The notes under the pieces are model-generated. The model ran no database searches, was not told the origin of the DNA, and saw only the letters and a list, made by a program, of their open reading frames with translations. Shown here in pieces: positions 11,676 through 56,154 of a stretch of DNA of 64,000 nt. Numbering within the stretch: the first letter of the stretch is position 1; each line of letters begins with the position of its first letter. The position numbers were made by a program, and so were the translations under genes. The stretch spans positions 448,457 through 512,456 of the forward strand of contig JADJGQ010000003.1 in NCBI GenBank assembly GCA_016708025.1. The letters run 5' to 3'. Source of the DNA: a bacterium (GTDB taxonomy: Bacteria; Zixibacteria; MSB-5A5; GN15; FEB-12).

Positions 11676-11779
11676 ACACGCACTACTGCCTGTGACTTTC
11701 ATTCCGCGCACAGGCCAAAATCTACTTCCGATGATAAGAACGCTGTAAACGATAATTGGGATCACCAAAGGAGTACCGT

Positions 11780-14218
11780 ATGCGTCGCACTCTCGTCTGG
11801 AGCCTCACCTTCATCGTGGCCGCCCTTGCTTTTGTCGGCGCTGCGACAGGAGCCCCCTCTACTGTTAGCTACCAGGGTCGTCTCACCAGCTCGTCGGGCA
11901 CTCCGGTCGCCGATGGCTCCTACTCTATCACCTTCAGCATCTGGACTGACTCGGTCGCCGGCTCAATGATCTGGAGCGAATCACAGACTGTCCAGGTAAC
12001 CGGCGGTGGGGGACTCTTCTCCACCCAGTTGGGCGGCCTTCAGCCGCTCGGAGGAGAGTTGATCATTCATGCTGACGACGAACTCTTTCTTCAGACCGCC
12101 GTTTCGGGTACGCCGCTCTTACCCAGGTTGGCCCTGGGATCGGTTCCGCATGCCTTTGTGTCTTCCAGCGTGAGTCAGACTGTACCGGGGAAAGGCTCTG
12201 TTCACATGGGCGTGGGAGAAGACACGACCAAGATCATCACAACCCATGAGAGCTTCTCTAATCTCCTCGACTCCTACGTTCACCTCACCGATGATCGCGC
12301 ACTCATGGGACTAAAGTCCTACAACCCATCACAATCATATCGGGGCTCCAGTAATAGTGAGATCTCTGGAAGTGTTATTCGGAACTTTCTTGATCTCGAT
12401 GATGACGCTGATGGCGTCCCGGATGTCGTGGAAGATATGTCGGTCCAGCCTGGAACCGCTACTCTGAGTGTCAGTTCGTCAAAGAGACGTTTTAATCTGA
12501 TGGACGCCTTCCCTCAGCGCTTTGTGGTGAGTGCCCACGACTCAGACACGGCCAGTTCGGTCAGTTCTGCGTTGGAATCAGACGCGGATGCTGACGGCAT
12601 CGCTAATGGAAGCGTCTGGGCAAAGGTCGACAACACCGACGTGATCAGTGTCGCCGGAGTTGATGTCGATGAAGACGGCGACACCGATGTTGGCAACTCT
12701 TCCTCGGCCAAGATTTCACGTTCGATTCTCAAGACCTTCTTTGAGCGCGGCGATAAACCGACGCAAAGCCAGATCGTTGACAGCGTCGACGAGAACGGCG
12801 CATATCATGGCACCACTCGGTACACCGGTTCAGACTTTGAAAGATTCCATGTCAGCCTGATGCCGGACTCGGCTGTCGTTTCAACTGAAGCAAGCAATCC
12901 CGATGGGTCATCTTCGAGCCGCATGCGAGTCCGTGTCAACGAACTCGAAGCAAGACTACAGTCAATAGGAATACTGGCCAGGTCAAGCTCCACGAGTTCG
13001 CTCACGCCGGATTCGGCTTCTGAGACAATTGAAGTACATGGTGCTGGCGCACAAATTGGAAGAGTCGTCTCTGTTTCGTCGAGCACCGATATCGACAGTG
13101 CAGTGACCGAGATCCTCGGGCAGGATGCGACTAGCGCTGGCAGTATTCGACTCACCGCGCAACCAGCCGGACCGACTGTGGTGAATCTTTCGAGTATGGA
13201 TGCCTCCTCCGGCACGCCCATCATAAAGGGTAGTGCCCTCATGACCTCATCCCCCAGCAGTGTTGCACACTCACTGGAGTGGGATGAAGATGGAGATGGT
13301 GTCTTTGATCGCCGGGTCACCGAAGATTGCGATGATGACGACGCCGGAATCTCTATTCAGGCCGGTGTTGCCATTCCCAAGTTCATCAACGTCACAGCCC
13401 AGGCTCAGGCTGCCGCGCAAAAGGCTGATATCGGAATGTTGATGGGAGTCGGCTCGGATACTACCATAAAAATCGGTGCCGATGATGATGAGGCTGGAGT
13501 CACCATACAGTCCGGAGTCGCCATTCCGAGGTTCATCGAAATGAATGCCAAATCGCAGAGTTCAGCCCATCAAGCCAGCGTTGGACTTGTTATGGGCGCC
13601 GGCCCCGATACTGCGGTCGCAGTTTACAGCGACGAATCAGAAACTAAGCTCAGATTCAAGGCACCCCAATCCGGCCATTATACCTTTGATTTTGCATTCA
13701 CGCCCGCCAGTGGTTCGGTCTCTATGACTGATTCACTTGGCGCGATCTCCATGCAAATGGACGGCGATGGTCGCTTGGGAGTTGGCGGACCGGCTCATGC
13801 CAACAATCCCATTGATCATCCCTCCAGTGGGGCACACTTGACTTCCGGCGGTGTCTGGACCAACGCGTCCGACGAAAATCTCAAAGAGAATTTCAGGATG
13901 GTAAATGGCGAAGAACTCCTGGAGAAGCTCGAAGAACTTCCGATCAGCCAGTGGAACTACAAGAGTGAATCTGACAATGTGACCCACATCGGCCCGACCG
14001 CGCAAGACTTCCAGAAAGTCTTTGGCGTTGGCGAGAACGACAAGACCATCTCGACTATTGATCCCTCCGGTATCGCTCTTGCCGCGATCAAAGAGCTGAA
14101 TAAACAGAACCTTCAACTCCATGAAGAGAGCAAGAAGATCAGGAAAGAAAATGAACGACTGCAGAAAGAGCTGAATGAGTTGAGAGCCAGAGTCGACAAA
14201 CTGATCTCCGGCAAATAG
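11780..14218 (+). CDS. Paralog of 9077-11614: signal-peptide protein with the same N-terminal module and the same S74-like C-terminal chaperone domain
   Basis: The ATG at 11780 is preceded by AAGGAG (11768-11773), so the track start at 11756 is probably too early. N-terminus: VSYQGRLTSSSGTPVADGSYSITFSIWTDSVAGS. C-terminus: GGVWTNASDENLKENF...LPISQWNYK...HIGPTAQDF...IDPSGIALAAIKELNKQN, plus a coiled coil. Confidence 0.8.
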   Translation: MRRTLVWSLTFIVAALAFVGAATGAPSTVSYQGRLTSSSGTPVADGSYSITFSIWTDSVAGSMIWSESQTVQVTGGGGLFSTQLGGLQPLGGELIIHADDELFLQTAVSGTPLLPRLALGSVPHAFVSSSVSQTVPGKGSVHMGVGEDTTKIITTHESFSNLLDSYVHLTDDRALMGLKSYNPSQSYRGSSNSEISGSVIRNFLDLDDDADGVPDVVEDMSVQPGTATLSVSSSKRRFNLMDAFPQRFVVSAHDSDTASSVSSALESDADADGIANGSVWAKVDNTDVISVAGVDVDEDGDTDVGNSSSAKISRSILKTFFERGDKPTQSQIVDSVDENGAYHGTTRYTGSDFERFHVSLMPDSAVVSTEASNPDGSSSSRMRVRVNELEARLQSIGILARSSSTSSLTPDSASETIEVHGAGAQIGRVVSVSSSTDIDSAVTEILGQDATSAGSIRLTAQPAGPTVVNLSSMDASSGTPIIKGSALMTSSPSSVAHSLEWDEDGDGVFDRRVTEDCDDDDAGISIQAGVAIPKFINVTAQAQAAAQKADIGMLMGVGSDTTIKIGADDDEAGVTIQSGVAIPRFIEMNAKSQSSAHQASVGLVMGAGPDTAVAVYSDESETKLRFKAPQSGHYTFDFAFTPASGSVSMTDSLGAISMQMDGDGRLGVGGPAHANNPIDHPSSGAHLTSGGVWTNASDENLKENFRMVNGEELLEKLEELPISQWNYKSESDNVTHIGPTAQDFQKVFGVGENDKTISTIDPSGIALAAIKELNKQNLQLHEESKKIRKENERLQKELNELRARVDKLISGK
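13343..13642 (+). repeat. Two in-frame tandem 150-bp (50-aa) units
   Basis: AGISIQAGVAIPKFINVTAQAQAAAQKADIGMLMGVGSDTTIKIGADDDE is followed directly by AGVTIQSGVAIPRFIEMNAKSQSSAHQASVGLVMGAGPDTAVAVYSDESE. Confidence 0.7.
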
Positions 14219-36146: not shown

Positions 36147-36175
36147 TTGACTAAATTGACGATATTTGCTATTAT
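36147..36175 (+). promoter_or_regulatory. Sigma-70-like promoter
   Basis: TTGACT (36147-36152), a 17-nt spacer, then TATTAT (36170-36175), about 34 nt upstream of the ATG at 36209. Confidence 0.5.
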
Positions 36176-36208: not shown

Positions 36209-37399
36209 ATGGATAGATTGATTTACCTCGACAGTGGTGCCACCACCTTTCCGAAACCTGAAGAGGTCTACCAGGCGATTGATTTCACCTATCGGAACTA
36301 CGGGGTGAATCCCGGACGGTCCGGTTATGACCTCTGTATCGCTGCCGGAGAAGTAGTTGAAAATACGCGCAAGTTACTGACCAGCTTCTTTAACGGAACC
36401 GACCCGAATCGACTGACCTTCGCTTACAATGCGACCGACGCGCTCAATCTGGCTCTGTTCGGGTCTTTGAAATCGGGCGATCATGCCATCACCACCACCC
36501 TTGAACATAACTCGGTCCTCCGCCCCCTTTATCATCTCTGGCGGGATCATGGAGTCGAGGTTGACCATGTGCCGTTTGACAAAGACGGCTTTGTCTCCCC
36601 CGATGAGATCAAGAAGCTCTTCAAGAAAAATACCAAGGTCGTGGCCGTCAATCACGGATCGAATGTGATCGGAACGGTGCAGGATGTTTCTACAATCGGT
36701 AAACTCTGCCGCGAACGCGATGTCACTCTGATCGTTGATGTCTCCCAGACTGCAGGGAAGATCCCCATCGATATGCAGGCAATGAATCTCGACATCATCG
36801 CCTTCACTGGTCACAAATCGCTGATGGGGCCGATGGGGATCGGCGGCCTGTATGTGCGCGAGGGAGTTGAGGTTTGTCATACTCGCGCCGGCGGGACTGG
36901 CGTCCGGTCAGCTATCCGTTCGCATCTCGACGAATATCCGTACCGCCTCGAGTATGGTACGCCCAATCTCCTCGGCATCGCCGGTCTCCAGGCCGGCGTG
37001 AAATGGCTCCAAAAAGAGGGGCTGGAGAATATCGAACGGACCGAAACCAGGATGCTTCGATTACTCCGCGATGGCCTAAAGAAGATCGACGGAATCACAC
37101 TGTATTGTCAGGACGATCTGGCCAACCATATCGGGGTGCTGTCGTTTAATGTCGATGGAACTGAGGCGGCCGAGGTCGGCACAATGCTGGACGTTGACTA
37201 CAATATTGCCTGTCGAACCGGACTACATTGCGCGCCGATGGTTCATGAACAGCTCGGCACAGATAAAATTCACGGCTCGGTTCGTTTTGGGATCGGGCCA
37301 TTTACTGTTGAATCGGATATTGAAACTGCGGTCAGTGCGGTAGCGGAGATCACACAGATGAGACACGCTGTCGCCGCCAACGGCCGCCGGCATTCATAG
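36209..37399 (+). CDS. Class V aminotransferase-fold enzyme, cysteine desulfurase family
   Basis: IYLDSGATTFPKPEEVYQAIDF...GVNPGRSGY...FTGHKSLMGPMGIGGLY (PLP-lysine region)...RFGIGPF. Confidence 0.8.
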   Translation: MDRLIYLDSGATTFPKPEEVYQAIDFTYRNYGVNPGRSGYDLCIAAGEVVENTRKLLTSFFNGTDPNRLTFAYNATDALNLALFGSLKSGDHAITTTLEHNSVLRPLYHLWRDHGVEVDHVPFDKDGFVSPDEIKKLFKKNTKVVAVNHGSNVIGTVQDVSTIGKLCRERDVTLIVDVSQTAGKIPIDMQAMNLDIIAFTGHKSLMGPMGIGGLYVREGVEVCHTRAGGTGVRSAIRSHLDEYPYRLEYGTPNLLGIAGLQAGVKWLQKEGLENIERTETRMLRLLRDGLKKIDGITLYCQDDLANHIGVLSFNVDGTEAAEVGTMLDVDYNIACRTGLHCAPMVHEQLGTDKIHGSVRFGIGPFTVESDIETAVSAVAEITQMRHAVAANGRRHS

Positions 37400-37400
37400 A

Positions 37401-38741
37401 TCAGGCGGGCGGGTTCAATACCAGCGCGTCGGCCACCATCTCGGTGACGGTTTTTATATCAACACCGAGTTTGTAATGCTTGTTGAGTTCTGACAACTGA
37501 TCGATGCAGTTGTGGCACGGCGCAACGACCACCTTGGCGCCGGTCGCCGCGATCTGGTCTGCTTTCATTTGTCCGGCCTTGATTCGTCTTTCGGCGTAGC
37601 GAGTCATTGACAACTGCCCACCGCCGCCGCCACAGCAGAAATTCTTCTCCCGATTGGGATTCATCTCCACCAGATTCGAAACCGCCTGTCTCAAAACAAC
37701 GCGCTGTGGATCTACCACGCCGCCGAGCCGCCCGAGATTGCAGGGATCATGGAGTGTCACTGGCTTGGTGTGCTTGCCCGGATCGACCGTGATTTTTTTC
37801 TCTGCCAGCATGCGTTCCAATATATCGAGTATGCTGATCTCCGGAATCTCGTGAGGTTTCCCCCGCCACTCCGGTCCCTCCCATCGATTGGCATTAAAGC
37901 CGTGGCCGCACTCCCCGAGGATGATGGTTTTGGCGCGGAGTCGTATTGCTGTATCCTGGAGGCGTGAAGCGATCAGCGCCGATTTTTCATCATCACCACT
38001 GAACAGCCCATAATTGGTGACATCGTAGTTGTCCGATGCAAAAGTCCAGCTCACTCCGGCAGCATAAAAGATCTTTCCGGCCGCCAGTAACGAAAGCGGA
38101 TAGAATTTTGCTTCTCGTGGATTGATCGAATACAGGTAGTCGACATCCGTCTTATCCAATGGGAGCTCCGCGGTGGGGTCGCCTGTCTCTCCCTGTAATT
38201 CCTCGGTCAACCAGGCGATAGTATCGAGCCATTCCTCTTTCGAGATCCCCATATTATTGCCGCTATTGATCGCGGTGTCGACTGTCGATTGGAGCGAACT
38301 CGGAACCAAACCGGCCGATGCCAGCGCGGTACGTCCGCGGCGAATGATCTGGTGGATGCCGATTCCCATCGTGCAATTGAGCGTGCATCGCCCGCACAGA
38401 GAACAGCGACCATACAGCGAATCGACCCATGCGGCAACACTGCCGGCATCGAGTGGTCGCGCGCCAACCAGCTTCGGAAAGAACCTCCCCGCGACAGTAT
38501 GCCTGCTCTTATAGAAATCGGCTATCAACCCGGCCTTGTACGCCGGAATTGCCTCGTTCTCTGGATTGGTCAGGAAATAATGACAGCTATCGGCGCAGAG
38601 ACCGCAATGCACACAGGTCAGGATCTGCGAAACCAGTTCTCCATCGAGCGTTGCTTCCAGCGAAGCGATTATCTGGTTTAGCTGCTCGGATGTAGCCGGG
38701 CTGTCCAGTTTGCATGCGTTGACATCGGGTCCGCTGGTCAT
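37401..38741 (-). CDS. HdrD/DsrK-like iron-sulfur protein (two ferredoxin-type clusters plus CCG domains)
   Basis: CVHCGLCADSCHY and CSLCGRCTLNC (CX2CX2CX3C twice). CCG-type motifs HDPCNLGR and NFCCGGGGGQ...APCHNC. Confidence 0.7.
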   Translation of the reverse strand: MTSGPDVNACKLDSPATSEQLNQIIASLEATLDGELVSQILTCVHCGLCADSCHYFLTNPENEAIPAYKAGLIADFYKSRHTVAGRFFPKLVGARPLDAGSVAAWVDSLYGRCSLCGRCTLNCTMGIGIHQIIRRGRTALASAGLVPSSLQSTVDTAINSGNNMGISKEEWLDTIAWLTEELQGETGDPTAELPLDKTDVDYLYSINPREAKFYPLSLLAAGKIFYAAGVSWTFASDNYDVTNYGLFSGDDEKSALIASRLQDTAIRLRAKTIILGECGHGFNANRWEGPEWRGKPHEIPEISILDILERMLAEKKITVDPGKHTKPVTLHDPCNLGRLGGVVDPQRVVLRQAVSNLVEMNPNREKNFCCGGGGGQLSMTRYAERRIKAGQMKADQIAATGAKVVVAPCHNCIDQLSELNKHYKLGVDIKTVTEMVADALVLNPPA

Positions 38742-38744
38742 CTC

Positions 38745-39401
38745 TTATGCTCCTGCCTGATCATGTGGAAGCACCCCCCGGCGCCCGAAATACTTACCGA
38801 AAGTCACCCGGCTGACGAAGAAAAAGCAGCAATGCCGAATCTTCCCCAGTGGCAGGTAGAGCAGCAGCAGGATCGCACTGATATGCAGAAGCGGCGTCAG
38901 GTCTGGTTCATAGATTGCCACAGCAGCCGCCAGTAGAAAGATGTCGACCAGAAGATTGGCCAGGAAATCATCCGGATGGCTGATCGCCCGCAAGTACCGT
39001 GTGCTGATCCGCTTTATGAGTAACCCAAAACCAGTCAGACATCCTGCGATCACCGGCGCTACTAAAATTGCATTCCAGAATTGACCAGTTTGCGGAGGCG
39101 CGAGCGAAAGCAGAAGCAGCAGAAATGCTGCAAAGATCCCTATATGGTAGATCACTCCGGCGACATACGTCGCTATATGCTGACGCGCGGAATCTTTCTC
39201 CCACGGCATCATCCCTTCGACAAACGCATAGCGGATACCCGCGCTTTCACTCCCAACCGCTAGCGCATACGACTTTCTCTCTCCAAAAGAGCGAGCTTTA
39301 CGCAAAGCAAGGATCAGGCCGACCAGCGCAAATGCAAATGCGCCGATCACCGCATACTTCAGAAGAGAAAGTGGCCCAATCCATAGATCAGACACAGCCA
39401 T
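38745..39401 (-). CDS. Polytopic membrane protein, possibly a NarI/DsrM-like dihaem cytochrome b
   Basis: Start chosen at the ATG at 39401 (MAVSDLWIGPLSLL...), because the track ORF start would run through dsrC. About five hydrophobic helices. His pairs HIATYVAGVIYH and HISAILLLLYLPLGKIRH have NarI-like spacing. Confidence 0.45.
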   Translation of the reverse strand: MAVSDLWIGPLSLLKYAVIGAFAFALVGLILALRKARSFGERKSYALAVGSESAGIRYAFVEGMMPWEKDSARQHIATYVAGVIYHIGIFAAFLLLLLSLAPPQTGQFWNAILVAPVIAGCLTGFGLLIKRISTRYLRAISHPDDFLANLLVDIFLLAAAVAIYEPDLTPLLHISAILLLLYLPLGKIRHCCFFFVSRVTFGKYFGRRGVLPHDQAGA

Positions 39402-39708
39402 CCGGTTTGGGAAGGCCGGCCAGTTTGCACGCTCCCTTGGCGGGGCCGGAGGGAAACAACTCATAGATACGGCGCAGCGGAAGACCCGATGATTTGCAGA
39501 CGGCACGGACCATGGGTGCCATATTCGTTTCCAGGAAATGCCCCCGAATAAACTCGATCACTTTCCAATGATCGGGAGTCAGCTCATCAAGTCCCTCTTC
39601 GACTTTGGCCAGAACTTTAGCGACCTCGTGGTCCCAGGCAGTCGGGTCAGAAAGAAAGCCCTCTTCGTTCAGTGCCAGAGTCTTCCCCTGTACTTCTATA
39701 TTCGACAT
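39388..39708 (-). CDS. dsrC: DsrC/TusE-family sulfur-relay protein with both C-terminal cysteines (DsrC type)
   Basis: Starts at MSNIEVQGKTLALNEEGFL and ends ...GPAKGACKLAGLPKPDGCV, the canonical C-x10-C-V arm. It has 106 aa from the ATG at 39708. Confidence 0.85.
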   Translation of the reverse strand: MSNIEVQGKTLALNEEGFLSDPTAWDHEVAKVLAKVEEGLDELTPDHWKVIEFIRGHFLETNMAPMVRAVCKSSGLPLRRIYELFPSGPAKGACKLAGLPKPDGCV

Positions 39709-39870
39709 CGCAAATACCTCCGTCGTTACCGAACCAATATACCACCAATTCTGTCTTAAGACCAACAAAATTGTCCACGATGTTTGAGTCGGTAATGTTG
39801 TGCGGGAGGCAGAGATATGATGACCGGCCGCCACAAGCTGACGGCCGGTCTGCAAGTATACTAAAGAGTA

Positions 39871-40569
39871 TTACTTCGGAAGGGATTTCATGCAGAAGAA
39901 CCAGTCGAGACACTCGTAATCGTCGCCGGCATTGTCGACACGGTCTTTCGCCACGCCGCAGGAGCCCGGAGGCGGAATGATCACTTTGTCCCCCGGACGC
40001 CAGTCCGCCGGGGTGGCTACCTTATGCTTGTCAGAGGTCTGCATGGCGACCAACAAGCGCATGATCTCGTCGAAATTCCGCCCGTTCGACAACGGATAAT
40101 AGATTAGGGCACGGATAATTGACTCAGGGTCGATGAAAAAGACCGCGCGAACCGCCTGCGTATTGCTGGCGCCCGGCTGAACCATACCGAACTTCTTGGC
40201 AACATCCATGGTCAAGTCAGCGATCACAGGGAATTTGACCTCAACGTTTTCCATCCCGCGATACTTGATCTTCTCTTTGATCGAACGAAGCCAGGCAATG
40301 TGGCTGTAGTGGGAATCGATCGACAGACCGATCAATTCGGTGTTCAGTTTCTTGAATTCCGGCTCCATGGAGGCGAAAGTCATAAACTCCGTCGTGCAAA
40401 CCGGCGTGAAATCCGCCGGATGTGAGAACAGGATCACCCATTTCCCTTTGTAGTCGGCCGGGAAATTGATCTCGCCCTGGGTGGTGACGGCATGAAAGGA
40501 CGGGGCCTTTTCGCCGATCAGCGGGACGCGAACGTCATCCGTCCTCTGTGCCAATGTCGATTCACTCAT
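39871..40569 (-). CDS. Peroxiredoxin, Prx6-like subfamily with a C-terminal CxDWxFC motif
   Basis: GKWVILFSHPADFTPVCTTEF, with C-terminal YECLDWFFC. The ATG at 40569 is preceded by AAGGAG. Confidence 0.9.
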   Translation of the reverse strand: MSESTLAQRTDDVRVPLIGEKAPSFHAVTTQGEINFPADYKGKWVILFSHPADFTPVCTTEFMTFASMEPEFKKLNTELIGLSIDSHYSHIAWLRSIKEKIKYRGMENVEVKFPVIADLTMDVAKKFGMVQPGASNTQAVRAVFFIDPESIIRALIYYPLSNGRNFDEIMRLLVAMQTSDKHKVATPADWRPGDKVIIPPPGSCGVAKDRVDNAGDDYECLDWFFCMKSLPK

Positions 40570-40600
40570 GATTTGCTCCTTGTGTATTGGTTGTTCGGTC

Positions 40601-41137
40601 TCAATTTTTCTTCTTTGTTGCTTTGCCTGTCGCCTCACTGCAGTGATGGCAGATCCCCCGCAATTCGATACGCGTCTCCTGCACCCTTCCTATCATTTGC
40701 GCTGCAGCCGGAGTTCGCAGTGCTCTGTACTCACGACTTTGGAAATCGTAGACAGTTTCGCACTGGATGCAGACAAAGTGATGGTGCGGACCGAGATTGG
40801 CATCGAAACGGATCCGATCTGGTGATGAATCAACGGTATGTAGCAGGTGCAGATCCCGGAGGAGCCGGACCGCCCGATAGACCGTATCGAGTGAAACTCG
40901 CGGAATACGCTTCTGTACTCCCTTGTAGATAGTCTCTACATCGGGATGAAGTTCGCTTGAGGCGACCGCGCGAAAGACTTCTTCGCGAGCGCGCGTCACT
41001 TTGACCTGATGCCGATCGCAGATATCGTAGAAGTGATCGATCCGCTGCGCTATTTCTTGCCCGTTTTTCAGTGCCGTCTCCAAATAAGAATCATTACTAC
41101 CACATGGATAGTACCATCTATAATCGAAATCGGCCAA
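40601..41137 (-). CDS. Fur-family metalloregulator, probably PerR-like from its context
   Basis: A winged-helix region (VTRAREEVFRAVASS...SLDTVYRAVRLL), then HHHFVCIQCETV...CHHCS. It lies 31 nt upstream of the peroxiredoxin. The TTG start is uncertain. Confidence 0.8.
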   Translation of the reverse strand: MADFDYRWYYPCGSNDSYLETALKNGQEIAQRIDHFYDICDRHQVKVTRAREEVFRAVASSELHPDVETIYKGVQKRIPRVSLDTVYRAVRLLRDLHLLHTVDSSPDRIRFDANLGPHHHFVCIQCETVYDFQSREYRALRTPAAAQMIGRVQETRIELRGICHHCSEATGKATKKKN

Positions 41138-41171: not shown

Positions 41172-41193
41172 TTGTATACCAAAGAGTACACAA
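41172..41193. promoter_or_regulatory. Candidate Fur/PerR operator
   Basis: Inverted repeat TTGTATAC-N6-GTACACAA (7 of 8 positions complementary), about 35 nt upstream of the regulator gene. Confidence 0.4.
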
Positions 41194-43049: not shown

Positions 43050-45351
43050 TTGACCAGGAGTGGCATCATGCGATCGATCTATGCCTTGCGGGGAACTTCC
43101 CTGGCTGGTCTGCTCATTATTGCGCTGTTCTCATCATCCCCTTCAATGGCAACATCTCTCACCGCGACAAGTTTCTCGCCGGAATTGGCGCTGAAATCCG
43201 CCACCGCTGAGATCAAAGTCGATGGCCGCATCAGTGATAGCGGATGGCAGCATGCCTCAGTGATCGATCAATTTGTGGAGATCCGACCGGGGAACAATAC
43301 CGCACCCGCAGTCGAGACCAAAGTATGGGCGACCTATGATGACCATGGCATCTATGTTGCGTTTCTCTGCAAAGATGATCCCAACAGCATTCGCTCCACT
43401 CTCTGCCAGCGCGACCAGACGACCAGCGACGACATGGTGATGATCGCCCTCGACACCTACGGCAACGGGACCTGGGCCTACGAACTGATGGTTAACCCGC
43501 ACGGGGTCCAGCGCGATCAACTCTGGTCGGTCTCTGCGCAGACCGATATCGGTTTCGATCTTGGTCTGGGAGTCCGCCGCTATGCGAACTGATTCCGGCT
43601 ATCAGGTGGAGATAGCGATCCCGTTTGCCAGCCTGCGCTTCCCCGACAGCGATCAACAATCCTGGCGGATCGACTTCCGCCGCGTTCGCCCCCGCGACAC
43701 GTACATGCAGTACGCCTGGTCGGCGGTCGATCGCAATCAGCAATGCTATCCTTGCCAGTTCGGGACGATCAGCGGAATCGAAAATGTCAATCCCGGTCGT
43801 GGGATCGAATTGCTTCCGGCGTTTGTTGGATATCGCACCGGCGAGCGTCTCTCAAGCGAATCTTTTCAGGAGCATGACCCCAAGGGCTCAATGTCACTGA
43901 CCGGTAAGTATACCACCACATCGGATATCACGATTGAGGCCGCGATCAATCCCGACTTCAGCCAGATCGAATCGGATGCCGGTCAGATCGATGTCAATTC
44001 AACTGTCGCCCTGCTCTACCCGGAGCGACGTCCCTTCTTTAATGAAGGGAGTGACATCTTCCAGACGCTCTTTAATTCATTCTATACACGCACAGTCGCC
44101 GATCCATCGTTTGCGGCCAAGATCACCGGTCGGCTACCCAAAACTCGCTTTGGACTTCTGAGCGCTGTCGATGAAAACTCTCCGTATCTCATTCCTGTCG
44201 GTGAATTCAGCCTGCCCACTTTGAACAGCGGTCGAAGCTATGTTAATGTGCTCCGTGGCACACAGACTTTGGGGAGTGGCTCTCAGATAGGGCTGATGCT
44301 GACTGACCGGCGATTCCGCCACGATGGCTCCGGCAATATCCTTTCAGGTGACTATGTCCTTCGCCTTGGGCAGAAGTATGTTATCGATGGTCAGTACCTG
44401 ATGAGCCACACGGCCGAAATGAATGAACCGACACTGACTGAGCGCTTCAACGGCATTACCTTCGATCATGGGAAATATACGGTCGATTTCGATGGCGAGT
44501 CATATTGGGGGACCGCATTCATACAGCGGATTGGACGTTACTCCGAGCACTGGAATCTGACGCTCGACTACAATCAGGTCAGTCCCAGCTATCGCACTCA
44601 CACCGGGTACGACCCCGTTAATGACCATCGAAGCAGCTCCATCTATGGTTCGGTGACAGCCCGTCCCAAGGGCGGGATCATTGAGACTTTTCAGCCCGGG
44701 GGATTTGTCTTTCGACGGTTCAACTTTGACGGCGACCGCCTGAATGAAACCAATGCCCTCAATTGCTTCGTGGGATTCCGGTTCGCGCAGTCCTCGATCT
44801 TCATGGCTTACCGCGACATATTTGAGTCTTTTGCCGGATACGACATTGACGGTCTGTATACGCTGGTTGGACAGTTCTCCGCCCGACCGCATAGTCGTCT
44901 ATCGACCTCGGTGGAGGTTTACTCCGGCACTGCCGTGACTCACTTCCTGCCCGTTCCGGAAAAGGCGAACGAATTGACGGCCGTGCTCGGCCTCAATTTC
45001 AAACCGATCGACCGGCTGACGATTGAATCAAACACAACCTATTACTCGATCTCCGATCGCGCAGCCGACACGGCATACTTTGATGGATATATCTCACGAG
45101 CGCGTATTCAGTATCAGTTCGCCAAAGAGTTGTCGATCCGACTGGTGGCTCAGTATGACGACTTTGGCCGGGTTTGGTCGGTCGATCCGCTGCTGACCTA
45201 CCGTCTCAGTCCATTCTCAGTTTTTTATGCCGGTTCAACGATGGACTATCAGGATTGGCCGGATCTCCCCAACGATCCGAATAGCCCCAGCGCATGGCGG
45301 CTGGCGCAGCGTCAATTTTTCCTGAAACTGCAGTATCTGTTTCAGGTCTAG
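43050..45351 (+). pseudogene. CBM9-like / DUF5916-type outer-membrane-associated protein interrupted by one frameshift
   Basis: IKVDGRISDSGWQHA...YDDHGIYVAFLC...DDMVMIALDTYGNGTWAYELMVNPHGVQRD ends out of frame. Frame +1 from 43561 continues VWESAAMRTDSGYQVEIAIPFASLRFP. The two ORFs together give about 770 aa. Confidence 0.7.
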
Positions 45352-48831: not shown

Positions 48832-49827
48832 ATGAGAACAACCCTGTTACTTTCCGGATTGCTGCTCGCCGCGGCGCTCACCGGATGTAGTTCCAGCGAA
48901 CAGACGGCGAATACCGCAACCGGAACCCCCAAGCCGGTCAGCGCGGTCAAAGCGGATCGTCTGACGACCGGCGCGCATGACGAGATCATGGGGACAGTCC
49001 GCGCCCGCAACACCGCCGACCTGAGCACCAAGGTTCAGGCGCGCATCGACCGGATCCCGGTAGTGATCGGCAGTCGGGTAAACAGAGGCGGCACACTGGC
49101 CGAACTGGATACCCGCGAATTCAAGGCCCGCGTTCAGCAGGCGCGCGCCGTGAAGGAGCAAGCCGATCTGGATCTGACCCGCTACACGTCGCTATTGGAC
49201 AAAGATGCCGTCACCAAGCAGGAGTTTGACGCAGTCAAGGCGCGGGCATCGGTAGCAGAAGCGAATCTCGATGAAGCCGAAGCGCTCATGAGCTACGCGA
49301 CAATCACCGCCCCCTTCTCCGGAGTCGTGACACGCAAGATGGTTGATGTCGGCGATTTGGCGATACCCGGCCAGCCGCTTTTCACTCTCGAGGAAGAATC
49401 AGCGCCGCAGTTTGTGGTCACCATTCCGGAATCACAGCGCACTAAGATCGCTATCGGCGATCAGGTGCAGGTAGAAATATCATCGCTGGACACCGCCATC
49501 ACCGGCACGGTGAAGGAGCTCTCCCCCAGCGCAGACCCGGTGACCCGGTCGTTTATCGTGAAGATCGATCTTCCAGCCTCGATCGCGCGCCCCGGCCAAT
49601 TCGGTCGGTTGCTTCTTTCTGTCGGAGGGGATGAGTCGATCTACATTCCCAGCGCGGCGCTGGTTCGTCTTAATGCGGAGAATGTCGCGGTGCTTAAGTT
49701 TGTCCGAACTGGACGTTCCCTTGGCGACAAGATCGAGATTCTTGCCGGACTGGAGAGCCACGACCTGGTCGTGACCCGTGGATTGACCGGTCTAGTCGAT
49801 GGCGACAAAGTTGAGGTCCAGCCATGA
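48832..49827 (+). CDS. RND efflux periplasmic adaptor (membrane fusion protein), lipoprotein
   Basis: ATG at 48832 after GGAAGAGG. Lipobox AALTGC. Typical hairpin and lipoyl motifs ([14 protein letters not shown]..., [10 protein letters not shown]). ATGA overlap with the permease. Confidence 0.85.
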
Positions 49828-52800
49828 GCCAGGAACATCACACAGTTCCGGCCCACGGCCTCGCTGGCATGCTGGCGAAGGGGTTCATTAATTCCAAACT
49901 GACCCCACTGCTTATTTTAACTTCAGTACTGCTTGGCGCATTTGCGGTGGCGATGCTCCCCCGCGAAGAAGAACCGCAGATCAAAGTGCCGATGGTTGAC
50001 GTCATGGTTTCGGTCCCCGGCTTCACCGCCAAGGAAGTCGAAAACCGCGTCACCGCTCCCATGGAGAAACTGATCTGGGAGATTCCCGGAGTTGAATATG
50101 TCTACTCCATCTCCCGCCCCGAAGAAGCGCTGGTGATCGTGCGTTATCTCGTCGGTGAGGATGTCGAGAAGAGCCTGGTCAAGCTGAACCAGAAACTCCA
50201 ATCGAACTTCGACAAGATCCCGCCGAATGTTTCTTTCCCACTGCTGAAGCCCCGCTCGATCGATGATGTCCCGATCCTTGCGATGACCTTCCATAGCGCG
50301 GAACTGGATCATTACTCGCTCCGGCGCGTGGTCGCCGAGGTCGAGGATCAGATCAAGCAGGTGCGCGATGTCTCAGAGACAAACATAATCGGCGGACTCC
50401 GCCGTCAATACCGGATTCAGCTCGACCCGGAAGCGCTCGCCGCGCGGCAACTTGACCCGTTACAGATCATCCCGGTGCTCCGTCAGGCAAATCGCCAGAA
50501 CAAGGCCGGGTCGCTGGTATACAACAATCAGGAAGTGGTAATCGAGACCGGCGGATTTATCCGCTCGAAAGAGGATGCCGAAAAGGTTGTCCTCGGGGTC
50601 TATAACAACTCCCCGATCTACCTTCGCGATGTCGCCAAGATCATCGATGGTCCGGAGGAGCTGAATCAGGTTGTTTTGTTTGGTTCGGGAGCCGCGATCG
50701 GCCCGCATCACGAGGAGGAAGCGGCGGTCACGCTTTCAATTGCCAAGCGTCCAGGGACCAATGCGATCCAGGTCGCCGAACATGTTCTGGAGAAAGTCCA
50801 TTTCCTCGAAGGAAAAGTGATCCCGTCGAATGTTGATATGACGATCACCCGCCACTATGGCGAAACAGCCGAAGAGAAATCGAACGAGCTGCTATTCCAT
50901 ATGATGATCGCGGTTTTTTCCGTGTCGTTGCTCATCCTGCTGGCCCTGGGATGGCGCGAATCGATCATCGTAGCGCTGGCGATACCATCAACTCTCGCGC
51001 TCACTCTTCTTGTATTTTATCTTGCCGGATTTACGCTCAATCGTATTACGCTTTTCGCGCTGATCTTCTCAATCGGTATTCTGGTGGATGATGCGATCGT
51101 GGTGGTGGAGAATATCACCAGGCACTTGCATCTTGCGCAGAACAAGGGGCGACATTGGGCGAAGATCGCGATCGATGCCGTCTCCGAGGTAGGCAATCCC
51201 ACTATCCTTGCCACCTGGGCGGTGATCGCGGCAGTGTTGCCGATGGCGTTTGTCGGCGGACTGATGGGGCCATACATGCGGCCGATCCCGATCGGCGCGA
51301 CCGCGGCAATGCTCTTCTCGCTGGTGGTCGCATTTATCGTGACGCCATGGGCGGCAGTGCGTGTACTCAAATGGGGAAAATCGAAAGAGCATATCATTCA
51401 TGATGCATCCAATGAGGATTGGTCAACGCGCGCATATCGCCGTCAGATGACCAAACTGATCACCAAGCCGAAAACCCGAATGATCTACCTGACCACTATC
51501 ACCGTGCTGTTGGTTGGAGCGATGGCGCTTGTCGGCATCGGCTGGGTGCAGGTGAAGATGCTCCCGTTCGACAACAAAAACGAATTCCAGGTTATCATTA
51601 ATATGCCGGAGGGGAGTTCGCTCGAAGAGACTGTCCAGGCCTCTCGCGAGATCGCCGGAGCAATCGCCAAAGAGTCCGAGGTAACGGATTACCAGATCTA
51701 TGCGGGGAATGCATCGCCATTCAATTTTAACGGTCTGGTGCGGCATTACTTCATGCGGCGCGGCTCTTATTCTGCGGATATCCAGGTCAACCTGGTCGGG
51801 AAGGGTGAGCGGTCTGACCAGTCGCACGATATCGCCAAGCGGGTACGCCCGCGCGTGGATGATATCGCGAAGAAGTATCGCGCGGCGGTGGCGATCGCCG
51901 AGGTACCACCCGGCCCGCCGGTCTTACAGACTCTGGTAGCGGAGATCTATGGACCGACTGATTCCACCCGCACCGCGCTTTCGCGCAAGGTCGAGGAGAT
52001 CTTCAAATCGACGCCCGGCGTGGTTGATGTTGACGCCTACGAAGAGATGGATCAGCCAAAACTGACTTTCACGATCGATCATGAAAAAGCGGCGCTCCAC
52101 GGCATCACCGCCGGAGATGATCGGCCAGTCGGTGAAACTTGCGGTCCAGCGGGATACAGGTCGACATCGGACATCGCGACAATGAGCGCGAAGATGTCGC
52201 GTTAATACTGGAACTCCCCCGCGCGCAGAAAACCTCCGCGGCGGATATTCTCGGCCTGCAGATACGGATGCCGAACACGGTTCAGTCGGCGAATGCCGCC
52301 GATGCACCGCTGGTGCCGCTGCGAGAACTGGTGACGGTAATTGATACGATTGCGGAGAAAACAATCTATCGGAAAAACCTTATGCCGGTGACATATATCA
52401 TCGGCGATGTCGCGGGTGAGATCGAGTCGCCGGTGTACGCCATCATGGATATGAACAAAAAGCTGGAGAAGCTTGAGATGATCCAGTATGGCGGGACAGA
52501 GAATAAGCTGCAGATTCTCAATGCGAGTATGCCGTTCTCCACTCTCGAGCCCGCACTTAAGTGGGATGGTGAGTGGCATATCACGATAGAGGTCTTCCGC
52601 GATCTGGGGATCGCATTCGCCGCAGTACTGATCCTGATCTATATTCTGATGGTGGGATGGTTCCAGTCGCTGTTGACGCCGATCATCGTGATGGCGGCGA
52701 TTCCGTTCTCGCTCATTGGGATCATGCCGGCGCATGGCGCGATGGGGGCGTTTTTCACGGCAACCTCGATGATCGGATTTATGGCGGGGGCGGGAATTGT

Positions 52801-53083
52801 CATACGAAACTCAATCATTCTGGTCGATTTCATTGAGCTTCGTCTAAAGGAAGGGATGCCGCTGGCGGAAGCGGTGATCGATGCCGGCGCGGTGCGGTTC
52901 CGTCCGATGTTGCTCACGGCCGGCGCAGTGATTGTCGGTGCAGGAGTGATTTTGTTCGACCCGATCTTCCAGGGTCTGGCGATCGCATTGATGGCGGGCG
53001 AGGTCGCCTCGCTGTTGATCAGCCGTGTGGCGGTCCCGATTCTGTATTATGTCGGGCATAAGAAGCAGTATCCTGTGGCGTAA
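49824..53083 (+). pseudogene. RND (AcrB/CzcA-type) inner-membrane efflux permease interrupted by frameshift(s) near 52105-52165
   Basis: The 793-aa and 314-aa ORFs are the N- and C-terminal parts of one roughly 1080-aa RND permease. No outer-membrane factor gene lies adjacent. Confidence 0.85.
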
Positions 53084-53582: not shown

Positions 53583-54795
53583 ATGGGTAATCGAACAAAG
53601 AGCGCCAATTCAGAATTTAGGCTTGCAATTACTGAACAAGATGTCTTTCGAGCTAGAATTGCTGGCGAACTTGTGAAGCGTCGTAAACGTCCGACGTTGA
53701 TAGACTTGTTCGCTGGAGCGGGGGATGACGCTCGGCTTCACCAAGGGACTCGGGCACTGTTTTGAGCCGGTGTGGGCAAATGATATTGATGAGGCTTCCG
53801 TTACAACCTACCACTTGAATTTTGACTGCCACTGTGTGTCAGGAGACCTTATAGATATTTTGGCTGCCAGGAGTTACAAGATTCCTCATGCAGACGTGGT
53901 CATTGGAGGGCCACCATGCCAAGGGTTCAGCCTGCTTAACAAGAATCGGGACGGTGATCCGAGGAAGCAACTATGGAGACCGTTTCTTGATGTAGTCAAG
54001 CACTCTAAGGCAAAGCTGTTTGTCATGGAAAACGTCCCGCAGTTGCTTGGTACACCAGAGCATACAGAGATTCTTGGTTATGCCAAGAAACTAGGTTTTC
54101 AGACCGAGTCGCGTGTATTATGCGCAGCAGACTATGGAGTATCCCAGAAGCGGTATCGCGCCTTCATTATTGGGTGTTCATTTGCAGATCCGAGGATCTC
54201 CTTCCCGCCTAAGAAATCGCATTATAACCCTTGTAATGGCAGCACTCTTGATTTATTAGAATCGAATGGTGCATTTTTGACAAATCCCCAAAAATGGAGG
54301 ACAGTCAGAGATGCAATAGCGGATCTTCCACAGCCAACAGGTACCGAAATAGCTGCAGTAGCGCCACCATTCGACCTTCATTTCGGCAGGACGCCGACTC
54401 AGAAGTCCCTTCAAAGATATCGTGCAATTCCAGAAGAAGGAATGAACAGGTTCGACCTACAACGACGCGCCCTTAAATTGACTCCAGATTGCTGGATAAG
54501 GAAGACTTCCGGCGGGACTGACCTGTTTGGGCGCTTATGGTGGGATAAACCCGCTTTAACTATTCGAACAGAATTCTTCAAGCCAGAAAAAGGTCGGTAC
54601 CTTCATCCGTGTGAACATCGGCCGATTACGCACAGGGAAGCGGCGCGCCTGCAGAGTTTTCCAGATGATTTTCTATTCCACGGTTCAAAGACTCAAATCG
54701 CAAAACAGATCGGCAACGCAGTTCCTCCAATGTTAGCTGCTCGAGTCGCAGACTGCGTTTTTTCTCTTTGGCTCTCTCAGGAACAAGCTACATGA
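53583..54795 (+). pseudogene. DNA (cytosine-5)-methyltransferase, frameshifted inside motif I
   Basis: LIDLFAGAG is followed out of frame by MTLGF; the expected sequence is FAGAGGMTLGF. Downstream motifs are intact: GGPPCQGFS, ENV (FVMENVPQL), QKRYRAF, GNAVPP. Confidence 0.85.
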
Positions 54796-55202
54796 GCGAC
54801 GTTTTTTCTAGTAAGAAGCGCAGCGAGATAATGTCGCTTGTGAAGGGGCGCGATACAACACCCGAAAGAATAGTAAGATCACTCCTTCATCGAAATGGAT
54901 ATCGCTTTTCTGTTCATCGGTCGGACCTACCCGGAAGACCCGATATAGTTCTAACAAGACATCGTACTGTTGTATTTGTAAATGGCTGTTTCTGGCATGA
55001 CCACAAAGGATGCAAAAGAGCAAGTAAACCACAAAGTAATAGATTGTTCTGGATGGAGAAAATTGAATCTACTAGGATGCGGGATCAACGGAATGGCAGA
55101 TTATTGCGAAAATTGGGTTGGCGTGTTTTGACCGTATGGGAATGTGAAACCAAGCGCGACAACTTCCTGGCATCAAAGATTCGGAATTATTTCCAACGAT
55201 AG
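54792..55202 (+). CDS. vsr: Very-short-patch repair endonuclease
   Basis: KKRSEIMSLVKGRDTTPE...GRPDIVLTRHRTVVFVNGCFWHDHKGC...WRVLTVWECE. ATGA overlap with the methyltransferase stop. Confidence 0.9.
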   Translation: MSDVFSSKKRSEIMSLVKGRDTTPERIVRSLLHRNGYRFSVHRSDLPGRPDIVLTRHRTVVFVNGCFWHDHKGCKRASKPQSNRLFWMEKIESTRMRDQRNGRLLRKLGWRVLTVWECETKRDNFLASKIRNYFQR

Positions 55203-55215
55203 GCGGACAAAAACA

Positions 55216-56154
55216 ATGCCAAGACGGACAAAATGTGAGCAACCCGAGTCCCACCGAATCGAACTAATCGACTTATTGATGAATTTTGAGGCGGAGCTCA
55301 GATCCAAAGACCTACGTCGAAAAGTCCTCTCACTAGTCGACGCATATCGATTGCTGCACAACTTAGGAAGTTCACTAATTCCAATGGAGATTGCCAAGTC
55401 GGCCAGGGATCGCATTCTTTGCTACTTTAGGAAATACCCTTCGACGATAATCGATGGAGAGGAAATCATGGTGGTTTCCGGAATTAGTGAGTGGGCAAGA
55501 AGGGTGCGAGAGCTTAGAGTTCAATTTGGATGGAGCATCATTAGTGGAATCACAGCCAAGGAGATGCTGAAAGAGGAATCTCCTCTTGTCATTAACGGCG
55601 TTGAAATCAGCGAAATGAAACCGAATCAGTATTTTCTCGCGAGCCCAGAAGAAGATCGGGAGGCTGCTAGGCGTTGGCATGTAGCCAACGACATCCGAAA
55701 GGGAAAAGGCGGCTCGAAAGAGAAAATTATTGAATTCTTCCGTCAAAACGTGGGTCAGCCAATAAGCGGAGAAGAATTACGTTACGCTGCTAATGACAAA
55801 TCAGAATGGGCCAGACGTGTGAGAGAACTCAGAACTGAAAATGGCTGGCCAATTGTTACACGCAATACCGGCAGACCAGATCTACCTGTTGGAATGTATG
55901 TGCTCGAACAGGACCGACAGAGCCCCGAACATGACAGGAACATTCCCGATTTGGTACGACGCACAGTCCTCGAACAAGCAAAGTACCGTTGTGCTAACTG
56001 CAAATGGCATCACAAGAAGTGGAATCGATCGGACCCGCGATTTCTCGAGCTTCACCACAGTGTTCCGCATTCTCACGGTGGAAAGAATGAAGCCGAGAAT
56101 CTCATTGTATTATGTAACGTCTGTCACGATCAGATTCACAAGAAACGTCGATAG
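55216..56154 (+). CDS. HNH nuclease with a duplicated N-terminal winged-helix-like module; probable restriction endonuclease of the cassette
   Basis: C-terminal CANCKW...LELHHSVPHSHGGKNEAENLIVLCNVCHDQIH (HNH). Two copies of SEWARRVRELR..GW.I lie 105 aa apart. It starts 13 nt after vsr. Confidence 0.7.
   Translation: MPRRTKCEQPESHRIELIDLLMNFEAELRSKDLRRKVLSLVDAYRLLHNLGSSLIPMEIAKSARDRILCYFRKYPSTIIDGEEIMVVSGISEWARRVRELRVQFGWSIISGITAKEMLKEESPLVINGVEISEMKPNQYFLASPEEDREAARRWHVANDIRKGKGGSKEKIIEFFRQNVGQPISGEELRYAANDKSEWARRVRELRTENGWPIVTRNTGRPDLPVGMYVLEQDRQSPEHDRNIPDLVRRTVLEQAKYRCANCKWHHKKWNRSDPRFLELHHSVPHSHGGKNEAENLIVLCNVCHDQIHKKRR

Follow-up and report, generated by a model that had tools for sequence, protein, structure and literature searches.

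We analysed a 64,000-nt stretch of DNA (hereafter, the window) from a bacterium of the Zixibacteria (GTDB lineage MSB-5A5; GN15; FEB-12; GenBank assembly GCA_016708025.1, contig JADJGQ010000003.1, positions 448,457 to 512,456), with a focus on six genes that include a DsrC–DsrMK-like set. Five of these genes lie on the minus strand in the following order: a perR-like gene for a Fur-family regulator (40601..41137), prx for a Prx6-subfamily peroxiredoxin of the archaeal thioredoxin-peroxidase type (39871..40569), a two-cysteine dsrC preceded by a GGAGG Shine-Dalgarno sequence (39388..39708), a gene for a NarI-like, five-helix membrane subunit resembling DsrM, whose ATG start lies inside dsrC (38745..39401), and a gene for a 446-aa DsrK-type CCG iron-sulfur protein, here called type 1 (37401..38741). 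Gaps of 31 nt and 162 nt separate perR from prx and prx from dsrC, dsrC and dsrM overlap by 14 nt, and dsrK follows dsrM after 3 nt. The sixth gene, csd, is convergent on the plus strand (36209..37399) and encodes a class V cysteine desulfurase-family enzyme dependent on pyridoxal 5'-phosphate (PLP), of the TIGR01977 type and the SufS/CsdA-like group II; its stop codon is 1 nt from that of dsrK on the opposite strand. All of these genes, coordinates and spacings agreed with the original prediction, which had been made from the sequence without database searches. In relatives, dsrC, dsrM, dsrK and csd recurred together, and we refer to them as the module; perR and prx lie outside it.

Protein identities were assessed with hidden Markov model (HMM) searches against Pfam and NCBIfam, the curated cutoffs cited below being NCBIfam equivalog or model cutoffs; the E-values were far past chance. 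The DsrC protein matched PF04358 (3e-34) and TIGR03342 (105 bits, cutoff 53.5). Its C-terminus, ACKLAGLPKPDGCV, carries CysB (C94) and the penultimate CysA (C105) in the spacing CysB-X10-CysA. DsrC structures from DsrAB organisms in PDB (1JI8, 2XSJ, 2V4J, 1SAU) were matched at about 1e-29, compared with 1.6e-6 for TusE (7SYB), and the similarity of the window protein to those DsrCs was about the same as that among the DsrCs themselves. The HMM match, the cysteine pair and the far closer resemblance to DsrC than to TusE bear out its initial description as a genuine two-cysteine DsrC. Across the DsrCs of the module, CysA was present in 97/97 and CysB in 92/97, with Ala at the CysB position in the remaining five. 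The occurrence of these five together with DsrMK fits persulfide chemistry on CysA alone.

The CCG protein scored 288 bits with HmcF (cutoff 750), 277 with TmcB (735) and 225 with DsrK (NF045796, 400), at E-values of 1e-66 to 1e-85; the GlpC and LutB models matched it at about 1e-3 to 1e-5 only. The strength of the DsrK, HmcF and TmcB matches speaks against the earlier concern that the protein might be a GlpC/LutA-type enzyme, LutA likewise being matched at about 1e-3. It contains two [4Fe-4S] motifs (CX2CX2CX3C; C43/46/49/53 and C113/116/119/123) and a single PF02754 domain, with a CCG site made up of C334, CCG369-371 and C409xxC412, in which the CCG motif ends in Cys. An LGECGHG motif is also present, with C278 and H280 invariant, and all 14 motif cysteines were invariant in 81–82 of 82 homologues. 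A single CCG motif combined with G/T-ECGH sets DsrK, HmcF and TmcB apart from HdrD and HdrB (PMC10861901). An AlphaFold2 (AF2) model of the protein (predicted local distance difference test score (pLDDT) 80) had Mycobacterium smegmatis EtfD as its best Foldseek match (E 3e-13, template modelling (TM) score 0.69), followed by LutA and HdrB, all with probability 1.0; EtfD was also the sole PDB match by sequence (phmmer). The model has an HdrB/HdrD-like fold. The CCG protein is predicted to be the catalytic subunit.

The membrane subunit had no match in Pfam, PF02665 (NarI) included, and weak matches in NCBIfam to TmcC (34 bits, cutoff 240; 1.6e-8) and HmcE (30 bits, cutoff 275; 3e-7). Hydropathy analysis showed five helices. 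The top eight Foldseek PDB matches of its AF2 model (pLDDT 87) were all NarI (probability 1.0, TM score 0.49–0.55), and EtfD was also among the structural matches. The window protein has two histidine pairs, H75-X10-H86 and H173-X16-H190. H75, H86 and H190 were kept in 77–80 of 80 homologues. H173 is a histidine in the window protein only, with L, F or Y in the 79 other family members, and no conserved fourth haem ligand was found when one was sought in the family. The NarI-like histidine spacing originally described is thus present in the window, and three of the histidines are conserved in the family, but H173 is not. One bis-His haem is well supported; a second haem is uncertain. The subunit is predicted to be a quinol-interacting cytochrome b. 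The family also conserves the motifs YxPxGKIRHCFFFF and SxPDDxxxN.

The desulfurase matched PF00266 (1.7e-88) and passed the TIGR01977 cutoff (435 bits vs 377), while its score with the SufS model was below cutoff; the nearest solved structures were cysteine desulfurases and SufS. The PLP-binding K203 (GHKSLMGP) was conserved in 50/52 homologues and the catalytic C341 (GLHCAP) in 51/52. With 65–93% identity, csd is the best conserved of the four module genes, compared with 53–86% for DsrK. Type II desulfurases need a partner protein dedicated to accepting their sulfur (PMC11408855). A promoter scan placed a sigma-70-like promoter, TTGACT-17-TATTAT, in front of csd (36147..36175, plus strand), and the promoter block ATTGTTGACTAA...CTATTAT and the Shine-Dalgarno region were conserved in two of the closest relatives of the window (L003 and L005). 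A role as a selenocysteine lyase was considered and rejected: the protein scored 310 bits with SclA (NF040779) against a cutoff of 525, and neither the window nor the conserved neighbourhood contained selD or other selenium genes. A terminator-like hairpin followed by a T-run lies at 37427–37446 (plus strand), 28 nt past the csd stop and within the 3' coding end of the convergent dsrK, so the csd and dsrK transcripts must overlap.

Pfam scans of the 30 other large open reading frames (ORFs) in the window detected no dsrAB, dsrD, dsrN, aprAB, sat, qmo or hdrABC; these ORFs encode signalling proteins, carAB, transporters and a restriction-modification pair. The initial impression of a minimal DsrC–DsrMK set with no dsrAB in view therefore holds across the 64-kb window.

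We assessed the conservation of the gene order from two directions, anchoring first on DsrK and then on csd. Searches returned 579 pattern-confirmed relatives of type-1 DsrK, and at least 80 species-level genomes had a relative at 52% identity or more. The DsrK-anchored set, limited to one genome per species, comprised 80 loci with 52–86% identity to the window protein, or 81 with the addition of Aminicenantes locus L002. These loci came from Zixibacteria, Aminicenantes, other Acidobacteriota, Eisenbacteria and unclassified metagenome-assembled genomes (MAGs). Among the complete or nearly complete genomes with the module are CP070627.1 (Aminicenantes, 9.1 Mb), CP070702.1 (Eisenbacteria), OY970208.1 (Zixibacteria) and CAVQVX010000001.1 (Holophagaceae, 5.7 Mb). 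Neighbours were counted using tblastn with the window proteins, the denominators being loci with enough flanking sequence. Adjoining type-1 DsrK, dsrM was found in 72/73 and dsrC in 63/73 loci. Downstream of DsrK, csd was found in 46/67 loci; it was convergent at 44 of these and no more than 150 nt away at 38. When all ORFs in the ±10 kb around the 81 genome loci were clustered with no preset families, only dsrC, dsrM, dsrK and csd emerged as conserved. At the 61 loci with room on both sides, dsrC and csd were both present in 43, dsrC only in 10, neither in eight, and csd only in none (Fisher p = 1.5e-5 for the csd–dsrC association, uncorrected for kinship).

The csd-anchored set consisted of 80 loci on metagenome contigs, with 64–79% identity to the window protein. 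On 25 of the contigs, 1.5 kb or more of sequence was available on each side of csd, and type-1 DsrK adjoined csd on 22 of them: the two genes were convergent in 16, and six had a co-directional dsrC-dsrM-dsrK-csd operon. Three other csd contigs that we examined (L129:371-3476, L124:6001-10126 and L146:1320-5172) carried a second, divergent DsrMK-like pair together with a two-cysteine DsrC. The CCG protein of this type 2 is 560 aa long and has its best score on the DsrK model (318 bits), and its membrane gene matches PF02665 in L129 and L146 but not in L124. In L129 and L135 (L135:5950-7493), csd and dsrC overlap by 1 nt. As the same desulfurase subfamily accompanies a two-cysteine DsrC and either type of DsrMK, a functional link is hard to avoid. 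The tie between the DsrC–DsrMK set and a convergent desulfurase, pointed out in the original prediction, proved to be the strongest conserved feature of the locus from both anchors.

Type-1 DsrMK was found without dsrC or csd at 13 loci. No conserved alternative partner was identified at these DsrMK-only loci, save for a group of four with IscU/NifU genes. Downstream of DsrMK in L033:3714-9839, and at the equivalent positions in L031, L037, L044 and L050, lie genes for a metallo-beta-lactamase-fold protein, an IscU/NifU-like protein, a MinD/ParA–ferredoxin fusion and a CGGC protein, each present in four of the five loci. This set of downstream genes may point to a connection with Fe-S metabolism. 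In contig L129, csd is directly preceded, on its own strand, by a gene for a PLP enzyme of Cys/Met metabolism (PF01053).

The observations comprise the identity and the catalytic residues of each of the four proteins and a gene linkage conserved in both directions. Reading them together, we propose that dsrC-dsrM-dsrK and the convergent csd form one stand-alone module in which sulfur from cysteine would be loaded on DsrC and reduced by DsrMK with menaquinol, and we put the probability of this sequence-based reading at about 50%. Csd would convert L-cysteine into alanine, forming a persulfide on its catalytic cysteine. The sulfane sulfur would then be passed to the penultimate cysteine of DsrC, acting as the dedicated acceptor in the manner of SufE for SufS, CsdE for CsdA and the TusA-to-TusE relay for IscS. 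On DsrC, the sulfur would be present as a persulfide, or as a disulfide following attack by CysB and release of sulfide, and would be reduced by the DsrK-type subunit with electrons from menaquinol oxidised at the NarI-like subunit. The net reaction would be cysteine + quinol -> alanine + H2S + quinone. Published findings lend plausibility to every step. IscS persulfurates DsrC (PMC3397948), and type II desulfurases work with an acceptor (PMC11408855). DsrMKJOP is reported to reduce DsrC-bound S0 with menadiol, the GECGH cysteine of DsrK is persulfidated in cryo-EM structures and has been proposed to relay sulfur to the cluster, and for complexes consisting of M and K alone, quinol oxidation by DsrM is predicted to take place at the outer face, which would render the reaction electrogenic (PMC10861901, bioRxiv 10.64898/2026.08.25.746951).

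The link to membrane quinol favours a role of the cysteine-sulfur module in energy metabolism, as an electron sink, over a purely biosynthetic one. More tentatively, csd-dsrC-dsrMK could be a respiratory branch in DsrAB-less uncultured anaerobes (Aminicenantes, Zixibacteria, Acidobacteriota, Eisenbacteria), in which cysteine-derived, protein-bound S0 would be the terminal acceptor, quinol-oxidising DsrMK would build proton-motive force, and alanine and sulfide would be released; we consider this extension possible, with considerable doubt.

We compared the module with known systems. It shares with the DsrC–DsrMK(JOP) system of sulfite/sulfate reducers and sulfur oxidisers a two-cysteine DsrC with a conserved C-terminal arm, and the pairing of a NarI-like subunit with a CCG protein bearing two [4Fe-4S] motifs, one CCG motif and GECGH, in the minimal architecture of M and K only. 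By analogy, the predicted reaction would also be the same, i.e., quinol reduction of DsrC-bound zero-valent sulfur. The module differs from that system in having no dsrAB, dsrD, dsrN, dsrT or dsrJOP nearby, in its CCG protein, which at 446 aa scores 225 against the DsrK cutoff of 400 and has Cys instead of Asp at the end of its CCG motif, and in its membrane subunit, which conserves three of the four His ligands. With a cysteine desulfurase gene as the conserved partner, cysteine rather than sulfite would be the origin of the S0. HmcEF and TmcBC of Desulfovibrio and HdrDE of methanogens likewise combine a cytochrome-b-type subunit with an HdrD-like subunit, and the best NCBIfam similarities of the module proteins are to HmcF/TmcB and TmcC/HmcE. 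Unlike HmcEF and TmcBC, the module lacks periplasmic subunits of the cytochrome c or Fe-S type (HmcABCD, TmcA), and its proteins fall far short of the equivalog cutoffs; HdrD differs in having two CCG motifs and in acting on CoM-S-S-CoB. The closest solved structure to the CCG protein, M. smegmatis EtfD (PDB 9OJN), joins NarI-like dihaem and HdrD-like domains and links a cytoplasmic partner to menaquinone. In contrast to the module, EtfD is one fused polypeptide, its partner is an electron-transfer flavoprotein (fatty-acid oxidation), and its electrons flow toward quinone.

On the side of the desulfurase, the module resembles SufS–SufE/SufU, CsdA–CsdE and IscS–TusA–TusBCD–TusE in placing a group II PLP desulfurase beside a small cysteine carrier. 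In contrast to these relays, the acceptor of the module is a two-cysteine DsrC tied to a membrane quinol-dependent reductase, and no conserved biosynthetic enzyme is found nearby. We know of no desulfurase relay coupled to a membrane quinol-dependent reductase. As a member of the TIGR01977 (EF2568-type) desulfurases, Csd is also a homologue of SclA, from which it differs by its score below the SclA cutoff, by the lack of selD or selenium genes nearby and by having dsrC and dsrMK as neighbours. TusE is itself a DsrC homologue that takes a persulfide on the equivalent cysteine, and IscS with cysteine persulfurates DsrC in vitro, at the penultimate cysteine only (PMC3397948).

The IscS–Tus relay is the precedent for another explanation, namely that Csd and DsrC feed Fe-S clusters, thiolated tRNA or cofactors in the manner of TusE, with DsrMK keeping DsrC reduced or supplying the two electrons for S0 -> S2-. 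The dedicated acceptors of type II desulfurases agree with this explanation, as do the IscU/NifU-like and MinD–ferredoxin genes located 1–3 kb downstream in a subset of the DsrMK-only loci. However, the IscU synteny is limited to four such loci (L031, L033, L037 and L050), which have several other neighbours in common, and no MnmA, ThiI, MoaD/ThiS, SufBCD or SufU was conserved near the module. A membrane quinol-linked reductase would also be unusual in a biosynthetic pathway, and we judge this explanation unlikely.

Several points weigh against the cysteine-sulfur module itself. The evidence for it is comparative throughout. About 30% of the DsrK-anchored loci have no csd nearby, and eight have neither dsrC nor csd. 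The CCG protein is below the curated cutoffs for DsrK, HmcF and TmcB, and conservation of only three of the four canonical NarI histidines makes the haem content and the quinol site of the membrane subunit uncertain. A rough estimate gives about -0.1 V for the cysteine/(alanine + H2S) couple, which is approximately isopotential with menaquinone, so the reaction would be feasible but not strongly driven. The absence of dsrAB or another sulfite reductase applies to the 64-kb window; for the 81 genome loci, clustering of the ±10 kb gave no additional conserved gene family. Some Zixibacteria do carry dsrAB, of the reductive type (PMC8477390), and two-cysteine DsrC, i.e., DsrC with CysB, is held to be almost confined to DsrAB organisms (PMC3397948).

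The last two points also count in favour of the main rival to the cysteine-sulfur module, in which DsrC–DsrMK would be an ordinary Dsr component serving DsrAB or another sulfite reductase encoded elsewhere, with csd as an unrelated or supporting neighbour; by sequence and by its two cysteines, the DsrC of the module is indistinguishable from bona fide DsrC. Against this, there is no dsrAB, dsrD, dsrN, apr or sat in the window and no further family conserved within ±10 kb across the 81 loci. The conserved partner is instead csd, in both anchor directions and with two types of DsrMK, and the CCG protein misses the DsrK cutoff and is closer in score to HmcF/TmcB. The module is moreover common in Aminicenantes, which have been described as fermenters (PMC5459899), and one Aminicenantes MAG contains a two-cysteine dsrC and no dsrAB (PMC6081815). 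Taken together, we find this rival quite improbable.

It is very unlikely that Csd is instead a dedicated maturation factor that, like NifS in the case of nitrogenase, provides the sulfide from which the unusual Fe-S clusters in the DsrK-like protein are assembled. The tight adjacency of the genes and the three clusters of the DsrK-like protein would suit such a role, but csd tracks dsrC and not DsrMK: csd was absent from 8/8 DsrMK-only loci with room on both sides and was never found without dsrC, with which it overlaps by 1 nt in L129 and L135.

DsrC and DsrMK are treated as part of a minimal DsrABCMK set and serve as metagenome markers of dissimilatory sulfur metabolism. We found no description of the csd-dsrC-dsrMK cluster in the searchable full-text literature, where an earlier mention is still possible. 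Large comparative studies of Dsr took in only genomes with the DsrABCMK set (PMC10504309, PMC8477390). The parts of the module and the likely chemistry of DsrK are already known; the novelty would lie in where the sulfur comes from and in the lack of dependence on DsrAB. The module suggests an undescribed, quinol-driven reduction of cysteine-derived sulfur. If the respiratory reading is true, two-cysteine dsrC and dsrMK would no longer be reliable metagenome markers of sulfite/sulfate reduction, and DsrMK would act generally as a reductase for S0 bound to DsrC, either predating DsrAB or independent of it. The module would account for the puzzling genome bins with dsrC and without dsrAB and would indicate that microbes in sediments and sludge release sulfide from organic sulfur by a route so far unrecognised. 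It would also offer a simpler system, of three small proteins and cysteine, for the reduction of protein-bound sulfur at the single non-cubane cluster of DsrK-type proteins, and it bears on scenarios in which DsrC–DsrMK preceded the coupling to DsrAB.

The remaining two genes, perR and prx, encode a peroxide-defence cassette. The PerR-like protein matched PF01475 (1.3e-22), and its best NCBIfam matches were PerR models, at 94 and 84 bits (cutoffs 180 and 200); the NCBI gene model is 160 aa long, with the likely start near 41083. The peroxiredoxin has AhpC-TSA and 1-cysPrx_C domains, scored 338 bits with NF009668 (cutoff 211) and carries PVCTTE and ECLDWFFC motifs. The nearest structures are 5OVQ and the Prx proteins of P. 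horikoshii and A. pernix, with which it has the C-terminal motif YEC.DW..C in common. It is an ordinary member of the archaeal-type thioredoxin-peroxidase branch of Prx6, in which a C-terminal cysteine pair is typical. Adjacency of perR-prx to the module, the recurrence of which in relatives had been put forward as a check of the original prediction, was found in 0/81 species-level genomes and 0/80 metagenome contigs. The closest relatives, L003–L005 (DsrK-like proteins 85–86% identical), have the order SDR - dsrC - dsrM - dsrK - csd - FG-GAP, with no gene between SDR and dsrC; the MAG of the window includes NCBI record MBK7143035.1, and its nearest relatives are labelled Zixibacteria.

The sequence around perR-prx points to separate transcription. 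About 45 nt upstream of dsrC, including promoter-like hexamers (TGGACA-18-CAGAAT in the promoter scan), were nearly invariant between the window and L003–L005. This promoter region of dsrC-dsrM-dsrK (39735..39777, minus strand) reads TGGACA...TGGTATATT. Because it is conserved in spite of a different upstream gene (prx in the window, SDR in the relatives), dsrC has its own promoter. Just past prx, a GC-rich, terminator-like hairpin with a 12-bp stem (39822..39850, minus strand) marks the end of the perR-prx unit: the 81-nt region 39800–39880 folds at -31.3 kcal/mol (z = -4.6), and 0/200 shuffled sequences folded as well. The hairpin is not present in L003–L005.

A 15-mer, TACTCTTT[A/G]GTATAC, matched twice in the 64 kb (0.04 expected), and the two copies bracket perR-prx. 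Copy 1 (TACTCTTTGGTATAC; 41174..41188, minus strand) lies upstream of perR, and copy 2 (TACTCTTTAGTATAC; 39856..39870, minus strand), with the palindromic core ATACT-N4-AGTAT, lies directly 3' of the prx stop. The positional counterpart of copy 1 in the relatives is a single, perfect TATACT-N4-AGTATA palindrome with a variable spacer, located between SDR and the dsrC promoter (L003:8932, L004:8932, L005:8926). The direct repeat marks the borders of an insertion, or of a segment that the relatives have lost by precise deletion, and the palindrome is either the operator of some regulator or the recombination site of the insertion. No anomaly in GC or GC3 was seen at perR-prx, so base composition does not date the insertion. 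The best homologue of the PerR-like protein other than the copy from its own MAG had 51–53% identity, compared with 70–93% for relatives of the flanking genes, and the nearest PerR homologues are encoded directly upstream of catalase genes as regulator–enzyme pairs. In L163, which has the nearest perR homologue, the perR-katA promoter contains a TTACT-N4-AGTAA palindrome. We considered whether the palindrome of the window is a PerR operator that would place dsrCMK in the PerR regulon. This is unlikely because the relatives keep the palindrome and no perR homologue with more than 53% identity was found, and the two copies in the window resemble a duplication at the edges of the inserted cassette; the L163 palindrome leaves the question slightly open.

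In this lineage, perR-prx is a peroxide-defence cassette that is unrelated to the module and has been inserted between SDR and the dsrC promoter. Of the single string from perR to dsrK originally described, the same-strand order stands, but the genes do not form one functional unit. They belong to two, perR-prx and dsrCMK, because the synteny is absent elsewhere, the hairpin ends perR-prx and the dsrC promoter is separate. The initial suggestion that DsrC–DsrMK is a quinol-driven thiol reductase of the PerR regulon that recycles the neighbouring Prx has in its favour the same-strand adjacency in this genome and the TACT-N4-AGTA palindromes upstream of perR, dsrC and, in a similar form, the nearest perR homologue, but we dismiss it as extremely improbable: perR-prx adjoins the module in 0/161 loci, SDR directly precedes dsrC in the closest relatives, the hairpin and the conserved dsrC promoter separate the two transcription units, the palindrome persists in those relatives although no perR homologue with more than 53% identity was found, the 15-bp direct repeat resembles the mark of an insertion or deletion, the C-terminal cysteine pair is typical of thioredoxin-dependent, archaeal-type Prx, and PerR homologues mostly travel with catalase as two-gene units.

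Elsewhere in the window, an AcrB/RND transporter gene is broken into overlapping ORFs at 49824–52205 and 52139–53083 (profile positions 12–734 and 755–1019), which is likely due to a frameshift, an assembly error or a pseudogene. The overlapping, same-strand ORFs at 43050–43592 and 43561–45351 jointly resemble one DUF5916-type outer-membrane/carbohydrate-binding protein; as this family is represented in L005 by one 766-aa ORF, the window version is possibly another frameshift. Genes for a C-5 cytosine DNA methylase and an HNH-endonuclease-domain protein at 53725–56154, the sole low-GC stretch of the window (0.47 vs 0.545 overall), are probably an acquired restriction-modification unit. Peptidase_S74 is an intramolecular chaperone domain found in, e.g., phage tail spikes and endosialidases. 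Two tandem paralogues of about 830 aa each, at 9077–11614 and 11756–14218, have such a domain at the C-terminus, and the pair is preceded by a gene for a 1614-aa protein rich in CarboxypepD_reg domains.

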